From Longimicrobiales bacterium (GTDB taxonomy: Bacteria > Gemmatimonadota > Gemmatimonadetes > Longimicrobiales > Gaopeijiaceae): DNA of 64,000 nucleotides. The position numbers and the translations under genes are program-made. Shown piece by piece: positions 3,001 to 51,196 of the stretch. The notes under the pieces were generated by a model. That model was not told the DNA's origin. It worked only from the letters and a program-made list of their open reading frames with translations, and did not search any database. The stretch is from positions 1,088,001 through 1,152,000 of the forward strand of contig OZ250165.1 in assembly GCA_965238005.1 (NCBI GenBank), in the 5' to 3' direction. Each line of letters begins with the position of its first letter. The first letter of the stretch is position 1.

Positions 3001-3098
3001 TCCCACGGCGCCCCGACCCTCTTGATGGCTCGCGAACTTCGGCAACGGACCACTCTACCCCCGAGAAGGCAGTGGCCCCCGTGGCGGGCTTGCCGTCC

Positions 3099-3767
3099 CT
3101 ACTCCTCGTCGTTGTCCACTTCCACGTCCTCGACCTCCGCCTCCCGATGCCGGGCTCGGCGAGCCTTCCGTCCCTCCTTACGCCCCCGGCCCCGGCGTCG
3201 CTCCCGCGCTTGCCGCCGGGCCTCTTTCATGTCGCGCACAGCCTGCTCGAGGATCTCGTTCATCCTCGCCAGGTCCTCGGGCGCAGCGCCCCATTGGAAG
3301 GCCTGGTCGAAGGCGAATTGCGCCAGTTGCGAGAAGGACCTTGAAAGCTCCTTCATGTCACGGCCGAAAAAGCGATCCGTGAAGTGCTCCAGCCGCTCAA
3401 AGACTTCGTCGATGACGTCCTCGTTCTCGTCCAGATAGGTCCGCCCCTCTTCGGTGATGGAGTAGACCTTCTTTCCGTCCCCCTCTTCGGCCGTGACGTA
3501 TCCCTCGTCCTCCAACATCTGCAGGGTAGGGTACACCGATCCCGGGCTCGGTCGGTAGTAACCCCCCGATTCCTTCTCGAGCGCTTTCATGACCTCGTAC
3601 CCGTGCATGGGCTGCTCCGAGACGAGGCGAAGGATGACAAACTTCAGATCGCCGCGCTCGAAGATCTTCCACTTCGCGTGCCGGCGGCGGCGCCCGCGTG
3701 GCCCGAAGATGAAGGCGTCGAAGTCGAAACCGTAATCCGTTGCACAGAACATCTTCCCGATCCTCAT
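3099..3767 (-). CDS. PadR family transcriptional regulator
   Basis: RGDLKFVIL..PMHGYEVM..YRPSPGSVYPTLQMLEDEG..KKVYSITEEG. Confidence 0.93.
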   Translation of the reverse strand: MRIGKMFCATDYGFDFDAFIFGPRGRRRRHAKWKIFERGDLKFVILRLVSEQPMHGYEVMKALEKESGGYYRPSPGSVYPTLQMLEDEGYVTAEEGDGKKVYSITEEGRTYLDENEDVIDEVFERLEHFTDRFFGRDMKELSRSFSQLAQFAFDQAFQWGAAPEDLARMNEILEQAVRDMKEARRQARERRRGRGRKEGRKARRARHREAEVEDVEVDNDEE

Positions 3768-3780
3768 CTTTAGAGTTAGT

Positions 3781-3840
3781 ATATCGTAGGGATATCTCGC
3801 TTCATGGTATAACGATACACTTGTCGATATATCGTGTCAA
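3781..3840 (-). promoter_or_regulatory. Sigma70-like promoter of padR with overlapping palindromic operator
   Basis: Minus strand TTGACA (3840-3835), 17 bp, TATCGT (3817-3812); perfect palindrome CGATATATCG (3825-3834) inside the spacer; more GATAT half-sites at 3781-3796. Confidence 0.7.
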
Positions 3841-3928
3841 TAGAGGTCGGAAAAATCAAACGCCGGAAAGCCTTGTTGGCCCTCCGGCGTCGATGCCCGA
3901 GCAAGCGGGAGAGCGACTCCCGCGGTGG

Positions 3929-5206
3929 TCAGGGAGTTCGACCACCTCTCGGCTTGGCTCTCCGGCCGGTGGCTTTCGACCCCGACGACGAGGAGCCGGA
4001 ACGTGACGGCGCCGCTGCAGCGCCACCTGAGGTGCCGCCCCTCGCGCGAACACTCCCCGAGCTCGAGGCGCCGCTGCCCAGGCCCCGGGTGTAGCCGCGA
4101 CCTCTGACCGCTCGCGGACGACCCCCTGACTCCTGCTGGCGCCGACCAACCACCACGATGGTCGGGCGATAGGTGCCGTACGTCCCATACCCGAATCCGA
4201 ACCCTCCGTAGCCGAGGCCGTACCCGAATCCGTAACGATAGGGCGAGTAGTAGCCGTACCCGGCATACGGGGAGTAAAACGGGCTGAGGAAGAAGGGATC
4301 GTAGTAGAACGGGTCATAGTAGCGCCCGTATCCGAAACGGGCCCGCCCCGCCCGCCCATAGCGTCCTGTCGTGGTGTACTCGGACTCGGCCAGATCGGCG
4401 CCGCCCTCCCCGTTACGGTCCACCACGAAGTGCTCCGGGTAGGAGACCGCCACCACGATGTCGATGACACTCTCCGGCACGCCGGCGTCGGCCAGGGCGA
4501 TCAACCGGCTGGCATCCAGCGCGAACTGGTCGCCGCGCACTACGATCCAGGCCTCGACGGCCTTCGCGTCCATGTGCGAAGAGGCGTCCACCACGTCCTC
4601 GATCGTGAGAGCGGACGAAGCGGCGATGCGGGCCGACTGTTGGGCCATGGTCCGGCCCGCCACGATGCCTTCGAGACCGGCCGCCTCGACGGCCTCGAGG
4701 GCAGCCAGCTGATATCGGAGCACCCAGGGGACGCTCTCTCCGGCCACGTCCACGGTCCTCACGTCCAGCCACTCGTACGGGGACACCATGGACATGAGAC
4801 CGGCGGAGGTCCGCTCCACACCGCCCTCGCACACGAACTCCGCACTGAGATAGACGCGATGGCCGTCGTCCGAGAACGACGTGCGCTCCCAGCCGTCACA
4901 CCCCTCGCGGCTCGTCCGGCGGCTCATGCCGTCGGCCCGGATCGTCTCCTGAGACGCGATCTCGCCGTCGGCCACCGTCAGCATCTCCACACCGTCGTCC
5001 CCGGCCACGGGGTGAAGACACAGCATGGGCGCGTCGGCATCGTCGGGCCCGGCCACGGGCTCCCAGCATCCGAGCCAGGGGAGCCAGCGGGCGTCGTAGT
5101 CCTGATCCTGGGCAAGTGTCGGTGCCGCGGTGGTCAGCAGCAGCGCGCTGGCCAGAAGTCCCCCGCCGATCACGCCCCAGATATCTCGATGTGTGCTCAT
5201 CGTCAC
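3929..5206 (-). CDS. Secreted hypothetical protein with Tyr/Gly-rich and Gly/Ser/Arg-rich C-terminus
   Basis: Signal peptide ending ..APTLA-Q; RWLPWLGCW motif; low-complexity tail. Confidence 0.75.
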   Translation of the reverse strand: MTMSTHRDIWGVIGGGLLASALLLTTAAPTLAQDQDYDARWLPWLGCWEPVAGPDDADAPMLCLHPVAGDDGVEMLTVADGEIASQETIRADGMSRRTSREGCDGWERTSFSDDGHRVYLSAEFVCEGGVERTSAGLMSMVSPYEWLDVRTVDVAGESVPWVLRYQLAALEAVEAAGLEGIVAGRTMAQQSARIAASSALTIEDVVDASSHMDAKAVEAWIVVRGDQFALDASRLIALADAGVPESVIDIVVAVSYPEHFVVDRNGEGGADLAESEYTTTGRYGRAGRARFGYGRYYDPFYYDPFFLSPFYSPYAGYGYYSPYRYGFGYGLGYGGFGFGYGTYGTYRPTIVVVGRRQQESGGRPRAVRGRGYTRGLGSGASSSGSVRARGGTSGGAAAAPSRSGSSSSGSKATGRRAKPRGGRTP

Positions 5207-5218
5207 TGTCCCTTTCGG

Positions 5219-5980
5219 TCAGCGGCGTACCGACAATCCCAGTGTAGCCTGGAAGCCACCGAGATCGATGCCGTCGAAGTCCACGAAGTCCCGTCCCATA
5301 TCCATGCTAGCCCACGAGTAACGCGCCTCACCGGTCAGCACCACCCTCGGGCTCAGTGAGAGGTCCACGCCGGAGAATACGTGCGCCGTGCCCGTCGTGC
5401 CCTCGGAGTCGAGGAAGGCGTTGAAGACGTCCAAGGTCTCGAAGTCCACGAAGTCGCCTTCCTGCTCGAAGCGGTACCAGACCGCGCCGCCGCCCAGGCC
5501 TACGTAAGGCGACCAGCGCTCCGGCACCCGCACGAACCGACTCACCGAGCGGCCTCGGTCCCGGAGGTAGTATTTTGCACTGAGCGTCATAGGGACGCGA
5601 AGGAAGGTCGTGGTCTGCTCGATGGGGAGGTCGTCGAGATCCACCCAGTCCCGGAACTCCGAACGCGTGCTGCTTCGGGTGAGGCCTACGCCGACCGCGA
5701 TGTCGAGACGCTCGGTCGCCCGGATAGCGAAATCCGCCCCCCACGCTGACGACGCGAAGTCGCTCGTGCCGAGGGTGAGGATGTCGCGGGCGAAGTCGAA
5801 GACCTCGCTGCCTGCTTGAGGACGCGCGTATCCGGCCCTTATGCCGACGGACATCGTGGGCCTACGAAAGAGGAAGCCGGGGCCGCCCGCCTGCGCCGAG
5901 GCTGCCATTGGAAGCGAGATCATGGCAGCGACCGCTGCGAGGAGAACTCTCCCCTGAACCCGATTGCGGTGAGCGTTCAC
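5219..5980 (-). CDS. Outer-membrane beta-barrel protein
   Basis: GGAGG then GTG 5980; signal peptide ..ASA-Q; amphipathic strands, PYVGLGGG, C-terminal FQATLGLSVR. Confidence 0.75.
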   Translation of the reverse strand: MNAHRNRVQGRVLLAAVAAMISLPMAASAQAGGPGFLFRRPTMSVGIRAGYARPQAGSEVFDFARDILTLGTSDFASSAWGADFAIRATERLDIAVGVGLTRSSTRSEFRDWVDLDDLPIEQTTTFLRVPMTLSAKYYLRDRGRSVSRFVRVPERWSPYVGLGGGAVWYRFEQEGDFVDFETLDVFNAFLDSEGTTGTAHVFSGVDLSLSPRVVLTGEARYSWASMDMGRDFVDFDGIDLGGFQATLGLSVRR

Positions 5981-47027: not shown

Positions 47028-47779
47028 ACCATGAGGTCTCCGCCGGTGATGTCGTAGGCGGATCCGGTGATGTAGCCCGCCGCCTCGGAGGCTAGGAAGC
47101 AGACCAGGTCGCCTACTTCCTCGGGCCGACCCAGGCGCCCGAGGGGGAAGCTGGTGCGGTAGGCTTCCAACCGCTCGGGCATCGTGTTCTCGTGGGCCAT
47201 CTCGGTGTCGATGAGACCCGGGCAGACGGCGTTCACGGTGATGCCGTGGGGCGCTAGCTCCAGGGCCGAGGCTCGGGTGAGGCCGAGGACGCCGTGCTTG
47301 GACGCGGTGTAGTGGGCCCCACCCAGAGTGCTCACCGTTTTGCCGGCCGTAGAAGAGAGGTTCACGATGCGGCCGTACCCCTCCCTTTTCATCGGATCGA
47401 TCACGGCCTGGGTGCAAAAGAACACGCCTGTGAGGTTCACATCGAGGGTCCGCCGCCACTCCTCCTCGGAGATCTCCTCCAGCGGCGTCGGGAAGAGGAT
47501 CCCCGCGTTGTTCACTAGGATGTCGAGGCGCCCGAAGCGGTCCAGAGTGGTGGCCACCATCTCCCGGACGGCGTCCGACGAGGTCACGTCTGCCGGGGTG
47601 GGCAGCACATCTTCCCCCAGCTCCTCGGCCACCCGGCTCGTGGCCTTGGGATCCAGGTCGTTCAGCGCCACGGACGCGCCCAGCTCGTGGAGGCGCCGGG
47701 CGATGGCCCTACCCACGCCCCTGGCAGCCCCGGTTACCAGCGCGACGCGAGCGTCCATTCGGCTGACGACGCTCTCCAT
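47024..47779 (-). CDS. SDR family oxidoreductase (FabG-like)
   Basis: TGAARGVG, NNAG, YTASK, NAVCPG, ITG. Confidence 0.95.
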   Translation of the reverse strand: MESVVSRMDARVALVTGAARGVGRAIARRLHELGASVALNDLDPKATSRVAEELGEDVLPTPADVTSSDAVREMVATTLDRFGRLDILVNNAGILFPTPLEEISEEEWRRTLDVNLTGVFFCTQAVIDPMKREGYGRIVNLSSTAGKTVSTLGGAHYTASKHGVLGLTRASALELAPHGITVNAVCPGLIDTEMAHENTMPERLEAYRTSFPLGRLGRPEEVGDLVCFLASEAAGYITGSAYDITGGDLMV

Positions 47780-47790
47780 GGATCCTCCGT

Positions 47791-47902
47791 GTTCGAGATC
47801 GACCGGGTGCGAGATCGACGCTGTTCGAGATCAGCCCCATGCGAGACTAGCCCTGTGCGAGGTCAGCCCCGTGCGCGATCGGCCCCGAGCGAGATCGGCC
47901 CG
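47791..47902. repeat. 7 x 16-bp degenerate tandem repeat
   Basis: gttcgagatcgaccgg, gtgcgagatcgacgct, gttcgagatcagcccc, atgcgagactagccct, gtgcgaggtcagcccc, gtgcgcgatcggcccc, gagcgagatcggcccg. Confidence 0.88.
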
Positions 47903-48133
47903 CGTCGTCCACTCTGGCGAAGTGGCACTTATGATGCCCGTGGGCCGCCACCGGCGCCACCCCCGCCGCCACGGGGGGGCGAGCGGGGTTCGCTCAGCCG
48001 ACGAGCTCCTGAGGCAAACAGTTTCCGACGCTGGCCACGGGACCCGAACGGGGGCATTATTGACACCCTTTCCGGGTCAGCCCACCTCAGCGTGGCCCGA
48101 CCCTCGGCTCTTATTTCGGATGGAAGGATGGCC

Positions 48134-48919
48134 ATGGCAGAGTCGCCGCATGGACGCTTCGTCTGGTACGAGATGCTCACGGTGGACAAAGGCCCCACGA
48201 TCGACTTCTACAAGGAGGTCGTCGGGTGGGGCACGCAGGGTTGGGAGGCCGGCGAGCAACCCTACACCATGTTCACCATCGGCGAGGCCCCGGTGGGAGG
48301 AATCATGGATCTTCCCGAGGAGGCCAGGGCCGCAGGCGTCCCTCCGCACTGGCTGGCGTACGTCTCCACCTCCGACACGGACGCCACCGTCGAGCAGGCC
48401 AAGGAGCTGGGCGGCCAGGTCCTCATGGAGCCCATGAGCGTCCCCGAGGTGGGACGCATGGCCGTCCTGCGCGATCCCCAGGGAGCGGAATTCGCGGTCT
48501 TCACCGCCGAGGCCGACTCGCCGGGGCGCGATGGGCCGCCCCAGCTCGGCGAGTTCTCGTGGCACGAGCTCGCCACGTCCGACTATGAGGCCGGCTTCGA
48601 CTTCTACTCGGCCCTGTTCGGATGGGAGAAGACCACTGCGATGGATATGGGCGAGATGGGCGTCTACCAGATGTACGGGAGCGGGGAGTACGAGTTGGGG
48701 GGCATGTTCAACCTGCTTCCCGAGATCCCCACGCCCCCCCACTGGCTCCTGTATGCCAAGGTGCCCGACGTCGAGGCTGCCGCCGAGACCGTGAAGTCAC
48801 TGGGCGGCCAGGTGCTCAACGGACCCATCGACGTGCCCGGCGGGGATCGGGTCGTGCAGTGCATGGACCCCCAGGGGGCGGCGTTCGCGCTGCACTCGAG
48901 TGGAGGTGTACAAGCGTAG
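48134..48919 (+). CDS. VOC/glyoxalase family protein (two tandem domains)
   Basis: GRFVWYE..FY..GW..PPHWLAY..DPQGA occurs twice. Confidence 0.92.
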   Translation: MAESPHGRFVWYEMLTVDKGPTIDFYKEVVGWGTQGWEAGEQPYTMFTIGEAPVGGIMDLPEEARAAGVPPHWLAYVSTSDTDATVEQAKELGGQVLMEPMSVPEVGRMAVLRDPQGAEFAVFTAEADSPGRDGPPQLGEFSWHELATSDYEAGFDFYSALFGWEKTTAMDMGEMGVYQMYGSGEYELGGMFNLLPEIPTPPHWLLYAKVPDVEAAAETVKSLGGQVLNGPIDVPGGDRVVQCMDPQGAAFALHSSGGVQA

Positions 48920-49334
48920 GGGCCACGGTCCCTCTTGCATCGATCGAGGCGGCGCCTGCCGAGGGGGAACTGGTTTGGCCTCCCCAACAGGTGGCGGCAG
49001 TGCGCCTGCCAGCCGAAGCACGGGAGAGCGTCGGCGTAGACCATCTGGGCATCAATGGGAGGTCCACGGGCACCCTCCCGCCTTGTTCTTGACGCCTCAC
49101 TCGGGGCGGTGGTGAGGCTGGTCGACGCGCGCATCGTGGGTGGGAGATAGAGGGGAGTCCGAGCCGAAGGAGCCCGGTTTCCGGTTTACGAGGCGCACTC
49201 CCAACGCCCGACATCGATTACATTAGCGCGGACCTGAGTGATCTGACGGTGACGGACCCTCACTCTGTCCGGCTCGTGGACAGCCTGGTCTCGAAAGGCC
49301 GGTAACCGACGCCTCAACGGAGGTGCTCCCCTAA

Positions 49335-50750
49335 ATGCAGGTGCAGCCTACGCCAGTCGTGCTCCTCTAGGCGGACATCAGCGGGTACACGCGGTTCATG
49401 CTCTCCCACGAGAAGGCCCTGGCCCACAGCCAGATGATCATCGGAGAGCTGATGGAGACTCTGATCCGGGAGATCGAGTTTCCTCTGGAGCTGGTGGAGC
49501 TCGAGGGCGACGCGCTGTTCATGTACTCGCCCAAGACGACCACTGCCGAGGCGTGGGAAGGCCGGAGCCGACGGCTGGTCGAGCGCGTGCTGAGGCTATT
49601 CCAGGTCTTCGGCCGTCGTGTGGCCGAGATCGAGGCCTACAGTGTCTGTCGCTGTCCTGCGTGCTCCAACCTCAAGGAGCTGAAGCTCAAGGTCGTCGCT
49701 CACTCCGGAGAAGGGCTCCTCACGAAGGTGGGGAAGTTTCCGGTGCTCTCGGGCGTGGATACCATCAAGGCGCACCGGCTCCTCAAGAATTCGGTGGAGG
49801 CGGACCAGTATGTGCTGATGACCGAGTCCGCCCATCGTGATCTCCGTTTTCCCGAGGGCGCGGAAATCGAAGAGAGCGTCGAGGACTACGACATCGGGAC
49901 CATGAAGACGTACCTGTACTTCCCGGAGGAGTCCTACCATCTCGATGAGGAGGTGATCCGAGGGTCCTTCTCCGACTCCAACGTGGCCGTGCAGATTCTC
50001 CGTTATGAGGTTCAGCGGGAATACACGGAGGTGGCGAGCGACCCCTCTCGGGGCTTCCACTTCAACACGGGACTGGCAGCCACCGAGATGACGGAGTACG
50101 ACCCGGAACTGGTGGGCCGGATCCCGGAGAGCGTCGTGGCATCGTTCGCCGGGATGGGAAACCCGTTCAGCCTTGGAGAGCTCAGCGCAGGGGAGTACGT
50201 CGTGGACGTCGGTGCGGGAGCGGGGCTGGACACGCTGATCGCCGGGGAGATGGTGGGCCCTGACGGAATGGTGATCGGTGTGGACATGACGGCGGCCATG
50301 ATCGAGAAGGGCAGGGCGGCTGCGACCGACATGGGGATTGACCAGGTGGAGTTCCGAGAGGGTTTCGCCGAGTCGCTACCCGTGCCCGACGAGTGGGCAG
50401 ACGTCATCATCTCCAACGGTGTGGTGAATCTGGCTCCTGACAAGTCACTGGTCCTCAAGGAGATGTTCAGGGTGCTACGGCCAGGAGGCCGACTGCAGAT
50501 CGCGGACATCACGGTCTCCAAGGCCGTTCCGGAAGGAGCGAAACGAGACATCGACCTCTGGACCAACTGAATCGCGGGAGCTCTGCTCGAGACAGAGCTC
50601 CAAGCCACGGTCGTGGCCGCGGGGTTCGAGGACTTCGAGGTGACCTGGAGGAAGAACGTCTTCGAGGGTGCCCTCCGCCCCAGCAAAGAGGCGAAGGCTT
50701 TCGGTATCATGGGAGTGAATTTCCGGGCGTACAAACCGGCGGCATTGTGA
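49335..50750 (+). CDS. DUF2652-domain / ArsM-like SAM methyltransferase fusion selenoprotein (Sec at TGA 50568-50570; in-frame TAG at 49368-49370)
   Basis: ADISGYTRF, EGDALF, CRCPAC, LKVVAHSG, AHRLLKNSV, then SFAGMGNP, DVGAGAG, GVDMT, SNGVVNL, RVLRPGG, LWTN-U-IAGAL; 59 more sense codons follow and end at the next gene's start. Confidence 0.85.
50577..50601 (+). promoter_or_regulatory. Candidate bacterial SECIS hairpin for the UGA at 50568-50570
   Basis: Perfect 9-bp stem GGAGCTCTG / CAGAGCTCC with loop CTCGAGA, starting 6 nt after the UGA. Confidence 0.65.
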
Positions 50751-51196
50751 TGGATGGATTGGAACCACTTTGGACTTGCCCCAAGTGCGGGGGGCAGTTC
50801 GTGACCGAAAATCAGTGGCACTCCTGCGGGGAGGTCACTCTCGGACAATGGCTCGACGACCTGGGCCCCCGCGGCCTGGCCCTCTATAACCGCTTCGAGC
50901 AGATGATCGCCGCATGCGGCGAGTACCACGTGGCTCCTGCCAAGACCCGCATCGCCTTTCTAGGCCGGGTGCGTTTCGCCACCATCACCAAGATCTCGGA
51001 AAGAGGGATGACGTGGTCTTTTGCTCTGCCCCACGCCCTCGAGTCCGACCGCATCGATCGGATCGAGGAGGTGGTGTCGGGGTGGTACGTCCACTGGGTG
51101 AATGTCGTCGACTCCACTCAGCTCGATGCCCAGACCGAGGAATGGATCGAGGAGAGCTATCGGCTCATCGGGATGCAAGAACGCTTGAAGAGGTAG
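50750..51196 (+). CDS. DUF5655-like protein with N-terminal CxxC
   Basis: LWTCPKCG..F..NQWHSC, PAKTRIAF, WIEESY; TGATG overlap with the upstream stop. Confidence 0.75.
   Translation: MDGLEPLWTCPKCGGQFVTENQWHSCGEVTLGQWLDDLGPRGLALYNRFEQMIAACGEYHVAPAKTRIAFLGRVRFATITKISERGMTWSFALPHALESDRIDRIEEVVSGWYVHWVNVVDSTQLDAQTEEWIEESYRLIGMQERLKR

Follow-up and report, generated by a model that had tools for sequence, protein, structure and literature searches.

A DUF2652-methyltransferase selenoprotein of the ArsM lineage and its apparently decaying gene copy in a Longimicrobiales genome

Overview

A gene at 49335..50750 in a Longimicrobiales bacterium genome (assembly GCA_965238005.1, contig OZ250165.1) very probably specifies a two-domain protein in which an N-terminal DUF2652 domain is joined to a methyltransferase of the ArsM lineage that carries a single selenocysteine (Sec) decoded in the standard manner from UGA and a selenocysteine insertion sequence (SECIS), with the copy at hand in the course of decay. 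The whole stretch of DNA analysed, 64,000 nucleotides of the forward strand (contig positions 1,088,001 to 1,152,000), is called the window here, and coordinates count from its first letter. The open reading frame (ORF) of this gene under translation table 11, 49398..50570, ends in ..DIDLWTN, and its stop is the TGA at 50568-50570. Past this codon the frame continues for 59 codons (IAGALLETELQ...NFRAYKPAAL) up to the TGA at 50748-50750.

A sequence-only reading of the window had proposed that the first TGA is a Sec codon in a hidden fusion protein, and the details it described are all found in the DNA: the ORF stop with its 59-codon continuation, a final TGA overlapping the next ATG (at 50750-50752), the motifs GMGNP, SNGVVNL and WTN-U-IAGA (WTN-TGA-IAGA before decoding), and only three Cys residues, those of CRCPAC at residues 105, 107 and 110. 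It had placed the gene at 49335..50750. The frame is not open from 49335, because it is interrupted by a second in-frame stop that was overlooked, the TAG at 49368-49370 (codon 12).

An in-frame UGA as a selenocysteine codon

Homologs were sampled as DNA loci, 80 from metagenome-assembled genomes (MAGs) and 30 from relatives, and the codon aligned with TGA 50568-50570 was counted in homolog high-scoring segment pairs (HSPs) spanning residues 274-440, with shorter HSPs and the window copy left out. All 16 fused homologs carry TGA at this codon, as do 68 of the 79 unfused HSPs, the remainder being ten with Cys and one weak HSP with His. Together, the 95 HSPs hold 84 TGA codons and ten Cys codons (TGC or TGT), and additional, distant Cys forms are present in the locus alignment. 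One of the Cys rows (L010) comes from an unpublished genome (G025); without it the Cys count is 9/78, and no conclusion depends on it. The sequence-only reading had asked whether homologs have Cys or TGA at this column and conserve the tail, and the answer to both questions is yes, the tail being as conserved as the body. Specifically, tail identity is 61.8% in fused homologs, compared with 59.6% for the methyltransferase body, and 59.8% in unfused ones. The motif FGTxGINFRAxKP is common to the C-termini of the homologs.

All public gene calls stop at TGA 50568, as would be expected if the gene truly ended there and the open tail were a chance extension or a remnant. A search of approximately 5.8 billion proteins with the read-through query returned 5357 matches, and the best 120 of these 5357, which were examined, all combine PF10851 with methyltransferase domains; most have 404-440 residues, and they cover 85-87% of the query. 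Among 13 of these 120 that were aligned, 13 end at ..DLWT followed by N, H or G. Likewise, five fused 50%-identity representatives (P0121, P0123, P0124, P0126 and P0127) terminate at query residue 398-399 of 459, and no fused full-length Cys form occurs among the best 150 matches of such representatives. Even so, a true end at this TGA is hardly credible: tblastn alignments cross it and run to residues 467-471 in four phyla, the tail is conserved like the rest of the enzyme, the ten Cys homologs continue in frame, the hairpin described below tracks the TGA, and solved ArsM structures extend through the tail region.

A quick tree (SH-aLRT support, midpoint root) places the Cys forms L068, L082, L089 and L107 at scattered positions inside the Sec clade that contains the window gene. 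Three other Cys forms (L008, L010 and L097_187) make up a clade of their own in a distant branch.

The genome (4.84 Mb) carries the genes that Sec decoding needs and that the sequence-only reading suggested looking for. Matches to selA (462.8 bits), selB (354.9 bits) and selD (370.9 bits) all lie above their curated cut-offs, and ARAGORN reports a tRNA-Sec with anticodon tca. The selD gene itself (G000:C1:578521-579441, locus L122, outside the window) contains an in-frame TGA, and SelD is probably a selenoprotein here. The three bases of TGA 50568-50570 show no alternative letters in runs X1, X2, X4 and X5, and the TGA is unchanged in all four.

Because TGA and Cys share the column, the tail is conserved, the hairpin is constrained and the Sec machinery is present, comparison of the sequences indicates that TGA 50568-50570 is a genuine Sec codon at the level of the family, as had been proposed.

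A SECIS-like hairpin follows the UGA

The sequence-only reading noted a perfect 9-bp hairpin 6 nt after the UGA, and it is found at 50577-50601. After the spacer ATCGCG, GGAGCTCTG at 50577-50585 pairs with CAGAGCTCC at 50593-50601 around the loop CTCGAGA. A 63-nt segment is predicted to fold with -31.6 kcal/mol (z = -2.69). Among 80 TGA-bearing sequences, a family segment, GCUCUGCU-GGA-AGCAGAGC, that begins 10 nt past the UGA has near-invariant nucleotides.

In the register of the family, helix 2 is paired in 97.2% of cells across the 80 sequences, with compensatory changes at three of eight pairs (U-A to G-C; G-C to U-A or C-G), and helix 3, the second hairpin, is paired in 73.4% of cells with both sides changing in all six pairs; these pairing figures are inflated for reasons given further below. 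The overall covariation score is 0.160; shuffles give 0.113, with none of 500 reaching the observed value, and slid controls do not exceed 0.112. At third codon positions, the entropy amounts to 0.2-0.46 bits within the hairpin and 1.2-2.0 bits in adjoining four-fold codons. TGA forms have a mean of 7.77 of the 8 pairs, and four close Cys forms have 4-6. Thus, the hairpin after the UGA appears, on this comparative evidence, to be maintained by synonymous-site constraint and compensatory changes, and to be missing in Cys forms.

An Rfam scan of 49200-50900 gave only a chance match to a miRNA (E 0.78), and Rfam may hold no bacterial SECIS family. One fused homolog from Dehalococcoidia (L044:4216-4287) keeps the TGA and has a 12-nt (4-codon) deletion that takes the 3' arm of the hairpin (3/8 pairs). 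Its SECIS may be defective, or another structure may take its place.

A methyltransferase with one of four ArsM cysteine positions

The C-terminal half of the protein matches Pfam Methyltransf_31 (4.9e-28) and, by sequence, the Protein Data Bank entries 5evj (1.7e-25) and 4kw7/4fr0 (~7e-24). A full-protein AlphaFold2 (AF2) model (pLDDT 86.3, pTM 0.78) has ArsM 4fr0 (E 8.4e-18, TMt ~0.58), 6cx6 and human AS3MT 8xt7 as its top Foldseek matches. Alignment to the solved ArsM chains puts Met at Cys72 of the Cyanidioschyzon enzyme (CmArsM), Gly at Cys174 and the TGA (Sec) at Cys224. Thus, one of the four ArsM Cys positions (44, 72, 174 and 224 of CmArsM) is kept, as Sec, and the methyltransferase part of the window protein contains no Cys at all. 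The sequence-only reading had called this domain Cys-free, a description that holds for the window protein and does not extend to the family, since a non-catalytic Cys occurs within the S-adenosylmethionine (SAM) motif VGCGAG of many fused homologs.

We considered whether the protein is an ordinary ArsM for arsenic detoxification in which Sec merely replaces one Cys. By sequence and by fold, ArsM and AS3MT structures match it best, NCBIfam NF008823 is among its top matches, and some homologs are named "arsenite methyltransferase" by JGI. However, the NF008823 score is 218.7 bits, below the cut-off of 263, and the ArsM-fusion models also stay below theirs (NF041537, 226.6 of 510; NF041536, 216.2 of 575; NF047649, 216.9 of 460). 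Intact homologs, fused and unfused, likewise fall below all NCBIfam ArsM-type cut-offs, with NF008823 scores of 204-236 for the intact homologs. A published ArsM survey (PMC5552862) took the presence of three or more of the four conserved Cys residues as its requirement, and the window protein falls short of this number. In addition, the N-terminal part of the methyltransferase has no Cys, no ArsR, ArsC, Acr3 or ArsB gene was found in the flanks of the 16 fused loci or in the neighbourhood of the window gene, and related genomes contain separate, canonical ArsM genes of the Cys-Cys-Cys type (L015, L016 and L020). We therefore regard an ordinary ArsM as improbable. Because the positions of Cys72 and Cys174 hold Met and Gly, the methyltransferase, judged from its residues, does not appear to be a canonical arsenite methyltransferase, in agreement with the sequence-only reading.

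Two further ArsM-like arrangements were seen outside the window. A second, unfused gene in the same genome (G000:C1:3644285-3644932, minus strand) likewise has TGA in frame at the Sec column (GVGNP / SNGV / WAA-TGA-IGGALLE); its V/G/U subclade is more distant and has members in relatives as well (L011-L014 and L017). A Dehalococcoidia MAG (L040) carries a fused Sec gene at 3001-4371 followed directly by an unfused Sec methyltransferase paralog at 4443-5231, forming a tandem pair.

The DUF2652 domain resembles class III nucleotidyl cyclases

The N-terminal domain matches Pfam PF10851 (DUF2652) with 91.2 bits against a cut-off of 22.1. Its structure was modelled from an intact homolog (L034) rather than from the interrupted window copy, and the AF2 model of that domain has a pLDDT of 86.6 and a pTM of 0.85. 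The best Foldseek matches are catalytic domains of guanylate and adenylate cyclases, such as 3et6_A (E 2.1e-10, TMq 0.68) and 1wc3_B (TMq 0.73). Across approximately 200 of 210 columns, the ten best-ranked chains have TMq values of 0.68-0.73, except 2w01_B (0.66) and 3et6_B (0.67). The DUF2652 domain is thus predicted to fold like a class III nucleotidyl cyclase, which agrees with what the accessible part of PMC4886424 reports for DUF2652. That part mentions single-domain proteins and one polyketide-cyclase fusion, and the word "methyltransferase" was not found in it. No demonstration of cyclase activity for any DUF2652 protein was found in the literature.

Asp14, Asp59, Cys105, Cys107 and Cys110 are invariant in all 16 fused homologs, and His123 is invariant in alignments A1, A3 and A4. 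The two invariant Asp residues lie in the motifs ADISGYT and EGDA, probably at the place of the cyclases' two metal-binding Asp residues. The sequence-only reading had suggested, as possible roles of the fused CxCxxC domain, metal or metalloid binding or a coupling of methylation to signalling. The Cys3-His cluster is no adaptation of the fusion and belongs to DUF2652 in general, because a standalone DUF2652 protein in the same genome also has CxCxxC (CSCHAC) with a nearby His (VVHTGE). The CxCxxC spacing presumably equals that of the As(III) site of R773 ArsR, a correspondence that we treat as a lead.

The window copy carries a nonsense codon and is probably a young pseudogene

In the 18 homolog loci that cover codon 12, the column is Leu, Ile or Val in every case, and the same-genus genome G001 has TTG where the window has TAG. 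This one-base difference could be read as an assembly or sequencing error in an intact gene. Yet contigs of run X1, of X2 (depth 8.6 of 11.6) and of X4 (5.1 of 5.1) share the A at 49369, and T occurs in a minor X2 contig and in X5. Runs X2 and X4 come from a different study than X1, so the TAG is not an assembly error, and a 97%-identical protein (P0002) from another 5.1-Mb contig is likewise called only from Met22. An error of this kind is extremely improbable. A reading of TAG as pyrrolysine was rejected, there being no tRNA-Pyl by ARAGORN and the homolog column being Leu, Ile or Val.

The gene is also being lost by deletion. Genome G001 lacks approximately 936 bp of it and G002 lacks 1109 bp. 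Contigs assembled from the runs contain deletion joints at 49296>50708, 49315>50427, 49729>50667 and 49834>50012; these include the G001 and G002 joints, a complete 1411-bp deletion (X1 and X2) and a 177-bp in-frame deletion (X2) that matches protein P0002. A weaker 96-bp joint (49400>49497) is seen in X5 at depth 2.8. Co-occurring strains in runs X1, X2 and X5 thus carry different deletion alleles across 49296-50708, with the flanking genes retained.

Might the window copy still function? Translation could start or reinitiate at ATG 49398, 27 nt past the TAG, and yield a protein with a crippled cyclase-like domain and an intact Sec methyltransferase. No second lesion follows in the 1.35 kb past the TAG, where all residues invariant in the family are retained, and the TAG allele has persisted, since it predominates in runs of two studies. 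However, no clear Shine-Dalgarno sequence is seen before 49398, strand 1 and Asp14 of the N-terminal domain would be missing from the product, and four independent deletion alleles in close relatives argue for relaxed selection on the gene. We consider a functional copy possible but doubtful. The window copy is most likely a young pseudogene that at best gives an N-terminally truncated product.

Points that weigh against the overall interpretation

The interpretation as a whole, a decaying gene for a single-Sec fusion protein decoded through a SECIS-like element, must be set against several observations. First, the window hairpin has 7/8 pairs in the family register, with one C.A mismatch and with the loop CGA or CUCGAGA in place of the consensus GGA, a combination unique among the 80 sequences. 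Each of these deviations occurs singly in other TGA members (L090 and L098; L046, L077 and L097). Second, the hairpin structure was derived from the same sequences in which its pairing was scored and lies in a coding region, so that the pairing statistics are inflated. Third, the T/M-G-U pattern at the Cys72, Cys174 and Cys224 columns is common to a large clade, but the peptide patterns used to find the loci already demanded Met or Thr in the Cys72 column and Gly in the Cys174 column, which biases the counts for both; an unbiased search of relatives also returned V/G/U forms and separate canonical C/C/C ArsMs. Fourth, the 71 flank ORFs of the 16 fused loci include no conserved partner that would point to a substrate. 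Finally, the window gene is otherwise undamaged, and none of the invariant columns of a 17-sequence alignment has changed in it. Because the rest of the gene keeps all family-invariant residues, either the lesion is young or the gene still works from ATG 49398.

Layout of the locus and its neighbourhood

Table 1. Coordinates of the gene, its domains and RNA elements, and the adjoining start codon, in window positions.
Feature	Position	Strand	Basis or remark
Shine-Dalgarno-like GGAGG	49319..49323	+	11 nt 5' of ATG 49335; read in the sequence, putative function
ATG matching the family start codon	49335..49337	+	homologs of 407-416 aa start here or a few residues upstream
DUF2652 domain, class III nucleotidyl cyclase homology fold (predicted)	49347..49919	+	PF10851 and predicted structure of an intact homolog
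In-frame TAG, codon 12, nonsense allele	49368..49370	+	in beta-strand 1 of the cyclase-like fold, two codons 5' of invariant Asp14
First in-frame ATG 3' of the TAG (codon 22)	49398..49400	+	table-11 ORF start; putative reinitiation site
CRCPAC (Cys105, Cys107, Cys110), the protein's only Cys	49647..49664	+	translation
ArsM-like SAM-dependent methyltransferase domain, including the 59-codon post-Sec tail	49980..50747	+	Pfam, PDB sequence matches and fold
UGA read as selenocysteine, residue 412, at the CmArsM Cys224 position	50568..50570	+	homolog comparison
SECIS-like hairpin 1, 9-bp stem, loop CUCGAGA	50577..50601	+	fold and covariation
Second small hairpin, GCCAC-GGUC-GUGGC	50604..50617	+	covariation, helix 3
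Next gene, DUF5655 protein, start overlapping the stop; outside the system	50747..51196	+	Pfam PF18899 8.1e-10; ORF listed from GTG 50747, ATG at 50750-50752
True stop (TGA) of the read-through protein	50748..50750	+	homologs terminate within a few residues, with TAA, TAG or TGA

The neighbours of the gene in the window encode OmpA-like, SDR, glyoxalase, DUF5655 and M14-like peptidase proteins. Upstream, the gene at 47687-48919 specifies a protein with two glyoxalase/bleomycin-resistance-type domains (PF00903 and PF18029), and the ORFs at 48600-49200 on either strand are without family matches. No DUF5655 gene occurs among the 71 flank ORFs of the 16 fused homolog loci. Because there is neither a conserved partner nor an ars gene, the function is not readable from the gene context.

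Some members of the clade point weakly to sulfur or selenium chemistry. Three have a C-terminal TusA-like sulfur-carrier domain (PF01206; 28.6, 31.7 and 27.0 bits, the cut-off being 28.6). In addition, a rhodanese gene adjoins L039, peroxiredoxin genes lie near L040 and L042, and a pyridine-nucleotide disulfide oxidoreductase gene adjoins L035. The TusA fusions (L061:2959-4059, L107:319-1395 and L082:2884-4032) comprise one Sec form and two Cys forms. A short C-terminal extension containing a conserved cysteine of the type (A/L)xCE(I/V)P is seen in many of the other unfused members.

Proposed function and significance

The intact protein would work as follows. Its N-terminal DUF2652 domain would adopt a fold like that of class III cyclases, bearing two invariant Asp residues together with a Cys3-plus-His cluster, and its C-terminal domain would be a SAM methyltransferase whose sole remaining active-site chalcogen residue is the Sec at the ArsM Cys224 position. 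During synthesis, the hairpin 6-9 nt past the UGA would recruit SelB carrying Sec-tRNA, and translation would then run for 59 more codons and stop at TGA 50748. Since only one of the four ArsM cysteines is kept, we infer that a soft chalcogen or metalloid substrate is held by the single selenolate and methylated, rather than As(III) bound in a classical two- or three-thiolate site. In the window copy, codon 12 has changed from TTG to TAG, and the gene is also undergoing deletion in sister genomes and strains. At best, translation from ATG 49398 would yield a product whose cyclase-like domain has lost strand 1 and the Asp presumed to be its first metal ligand.

The DUF2652-methyltransferases might go further and constitute a new functional class, in which the Cys3-His cyclase-homology domain works together with the single-Sec methyltransferase and either supplies the selenolate with S, Se, Te, As or Sb species or converts substrate binding into a cyclic-nucleotide signal. 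We think this rather unlikely. If it were true, the whole ArsM-like clade with one Sec and no Cys would carry out chemistry other than arsenic methylation. One possibility would then be methylation of a persulfide or perselenide bound through Se-S or Se-Se, for which the leads are the TusA-domain fusions (L061, L107 and L082) and the rhodanese adjoining L039.

The single-Sec fusion matters for annotation and for chemistry. At least 120 protein clusters (90% identity) from four phyla are cut at the Sec codon in public sets and appear there as DUF2652 protein, UbiE-type methylase or arsenite methyltransferase, so that their C-terminus and selenium dependence are hidden from users. An ArsM-type site reduced to one selenolate presumably cannot work like the textbook enzyme, and an arsM label on these genes would inflate estimates of environmental arsenic methylation potential. 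Within one genus, moreover, a selenoprotein gene is being lost independently in several ways: by a nonsense codon, by complete deletion (one case) and by partial deletion (three cases).

Comparison with known systems

Selenoproteins of the ArsM type have been described before. In Table 1 of a 2026 review (PMC13188914), arsenite methyltransferase figures as an experimentally verified selenoprotein whose motif is UxxG, credited to Fomenko et al. 2007 (Science 315:387), together with ArsM/DUF2284, ArsM/AhpD and methyltransferase/UXPK-star fusion selenoproteins, credited to Haft and Tolstoy 2025. An ArsM selenoprotein is also found in an older review (PMC9312934) and in the Global Ocean Sampling (GOS) paper (PMC2398784). 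A DUF2652 fusion is not in Table 1 of PMC13188914, where "DUF2652" does not occur, although Haft and Tolstoy 2025 might still mention it. Literature searches on DUF2652 and on ArsM or methyltransferase selenoproteins found no description of a DUF2652-methyltransferase fusion. The sequence-only reading did not recall this architecture; it is real and widespread among the homologs.

Among the closest known systems are the Sec arsenite methyltransferases (UxxG; NF008823/PRK11873). They share with the window protein the fold lineage, the Sec column (U-I-A-G at CmArsM Cys224) and the decoding by UGA plus hairpin. The window protein differs in scoring below the NF008823 cut-off, in having no equivalents of Cys72 and Cys174, and in its N-terminal DUF2652 domain.

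The ArsM/AhpD (NF041537), ArsM/DUF2284 (NF041536) and methyltransferase/UXPK-star (NF047649) fusions resemble it in joining a UxxG Sec ArsM-like methyltransferase to a second module, as far as the accessible descriptions go. These three models are the best NCBIfam matches of the window protein, yet the scores are far below the cut-offs. In contrast to these fusions, the window protein has a cyclase-like DUF2652 partner at its N-terminus and one Sec, whereas the accessible descriptions give theirs two or three.

With canonical ArsM and AS3MT enzymes (CmArsM 4FR0/4FS8/6CX6, CrArsM 5EVJ and human AS3MT 8XT7), the protein has in common a Rossmann SAM domain and the substrate-site region that follows. 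Unlike them, it keeps one of four catalytic Cys positions and has no ars gene context. It also ends 59 residues past the Sec, without the large ArsM C-terminal domain, and the alignments stop at approximately residue 248 of the 377-387 in the solved chains. Its other half is akin to DUF2652 and class III cyclase homology domains (PMC4886424, accessible part) in Pfam membership and predicted fold. A Sec at the ArsM Cys224 position (UxxG) is an already catalogued type of selenoprotein, and the fusion architecture that joins it to DUF2652 is absent from the catalogues consulted.

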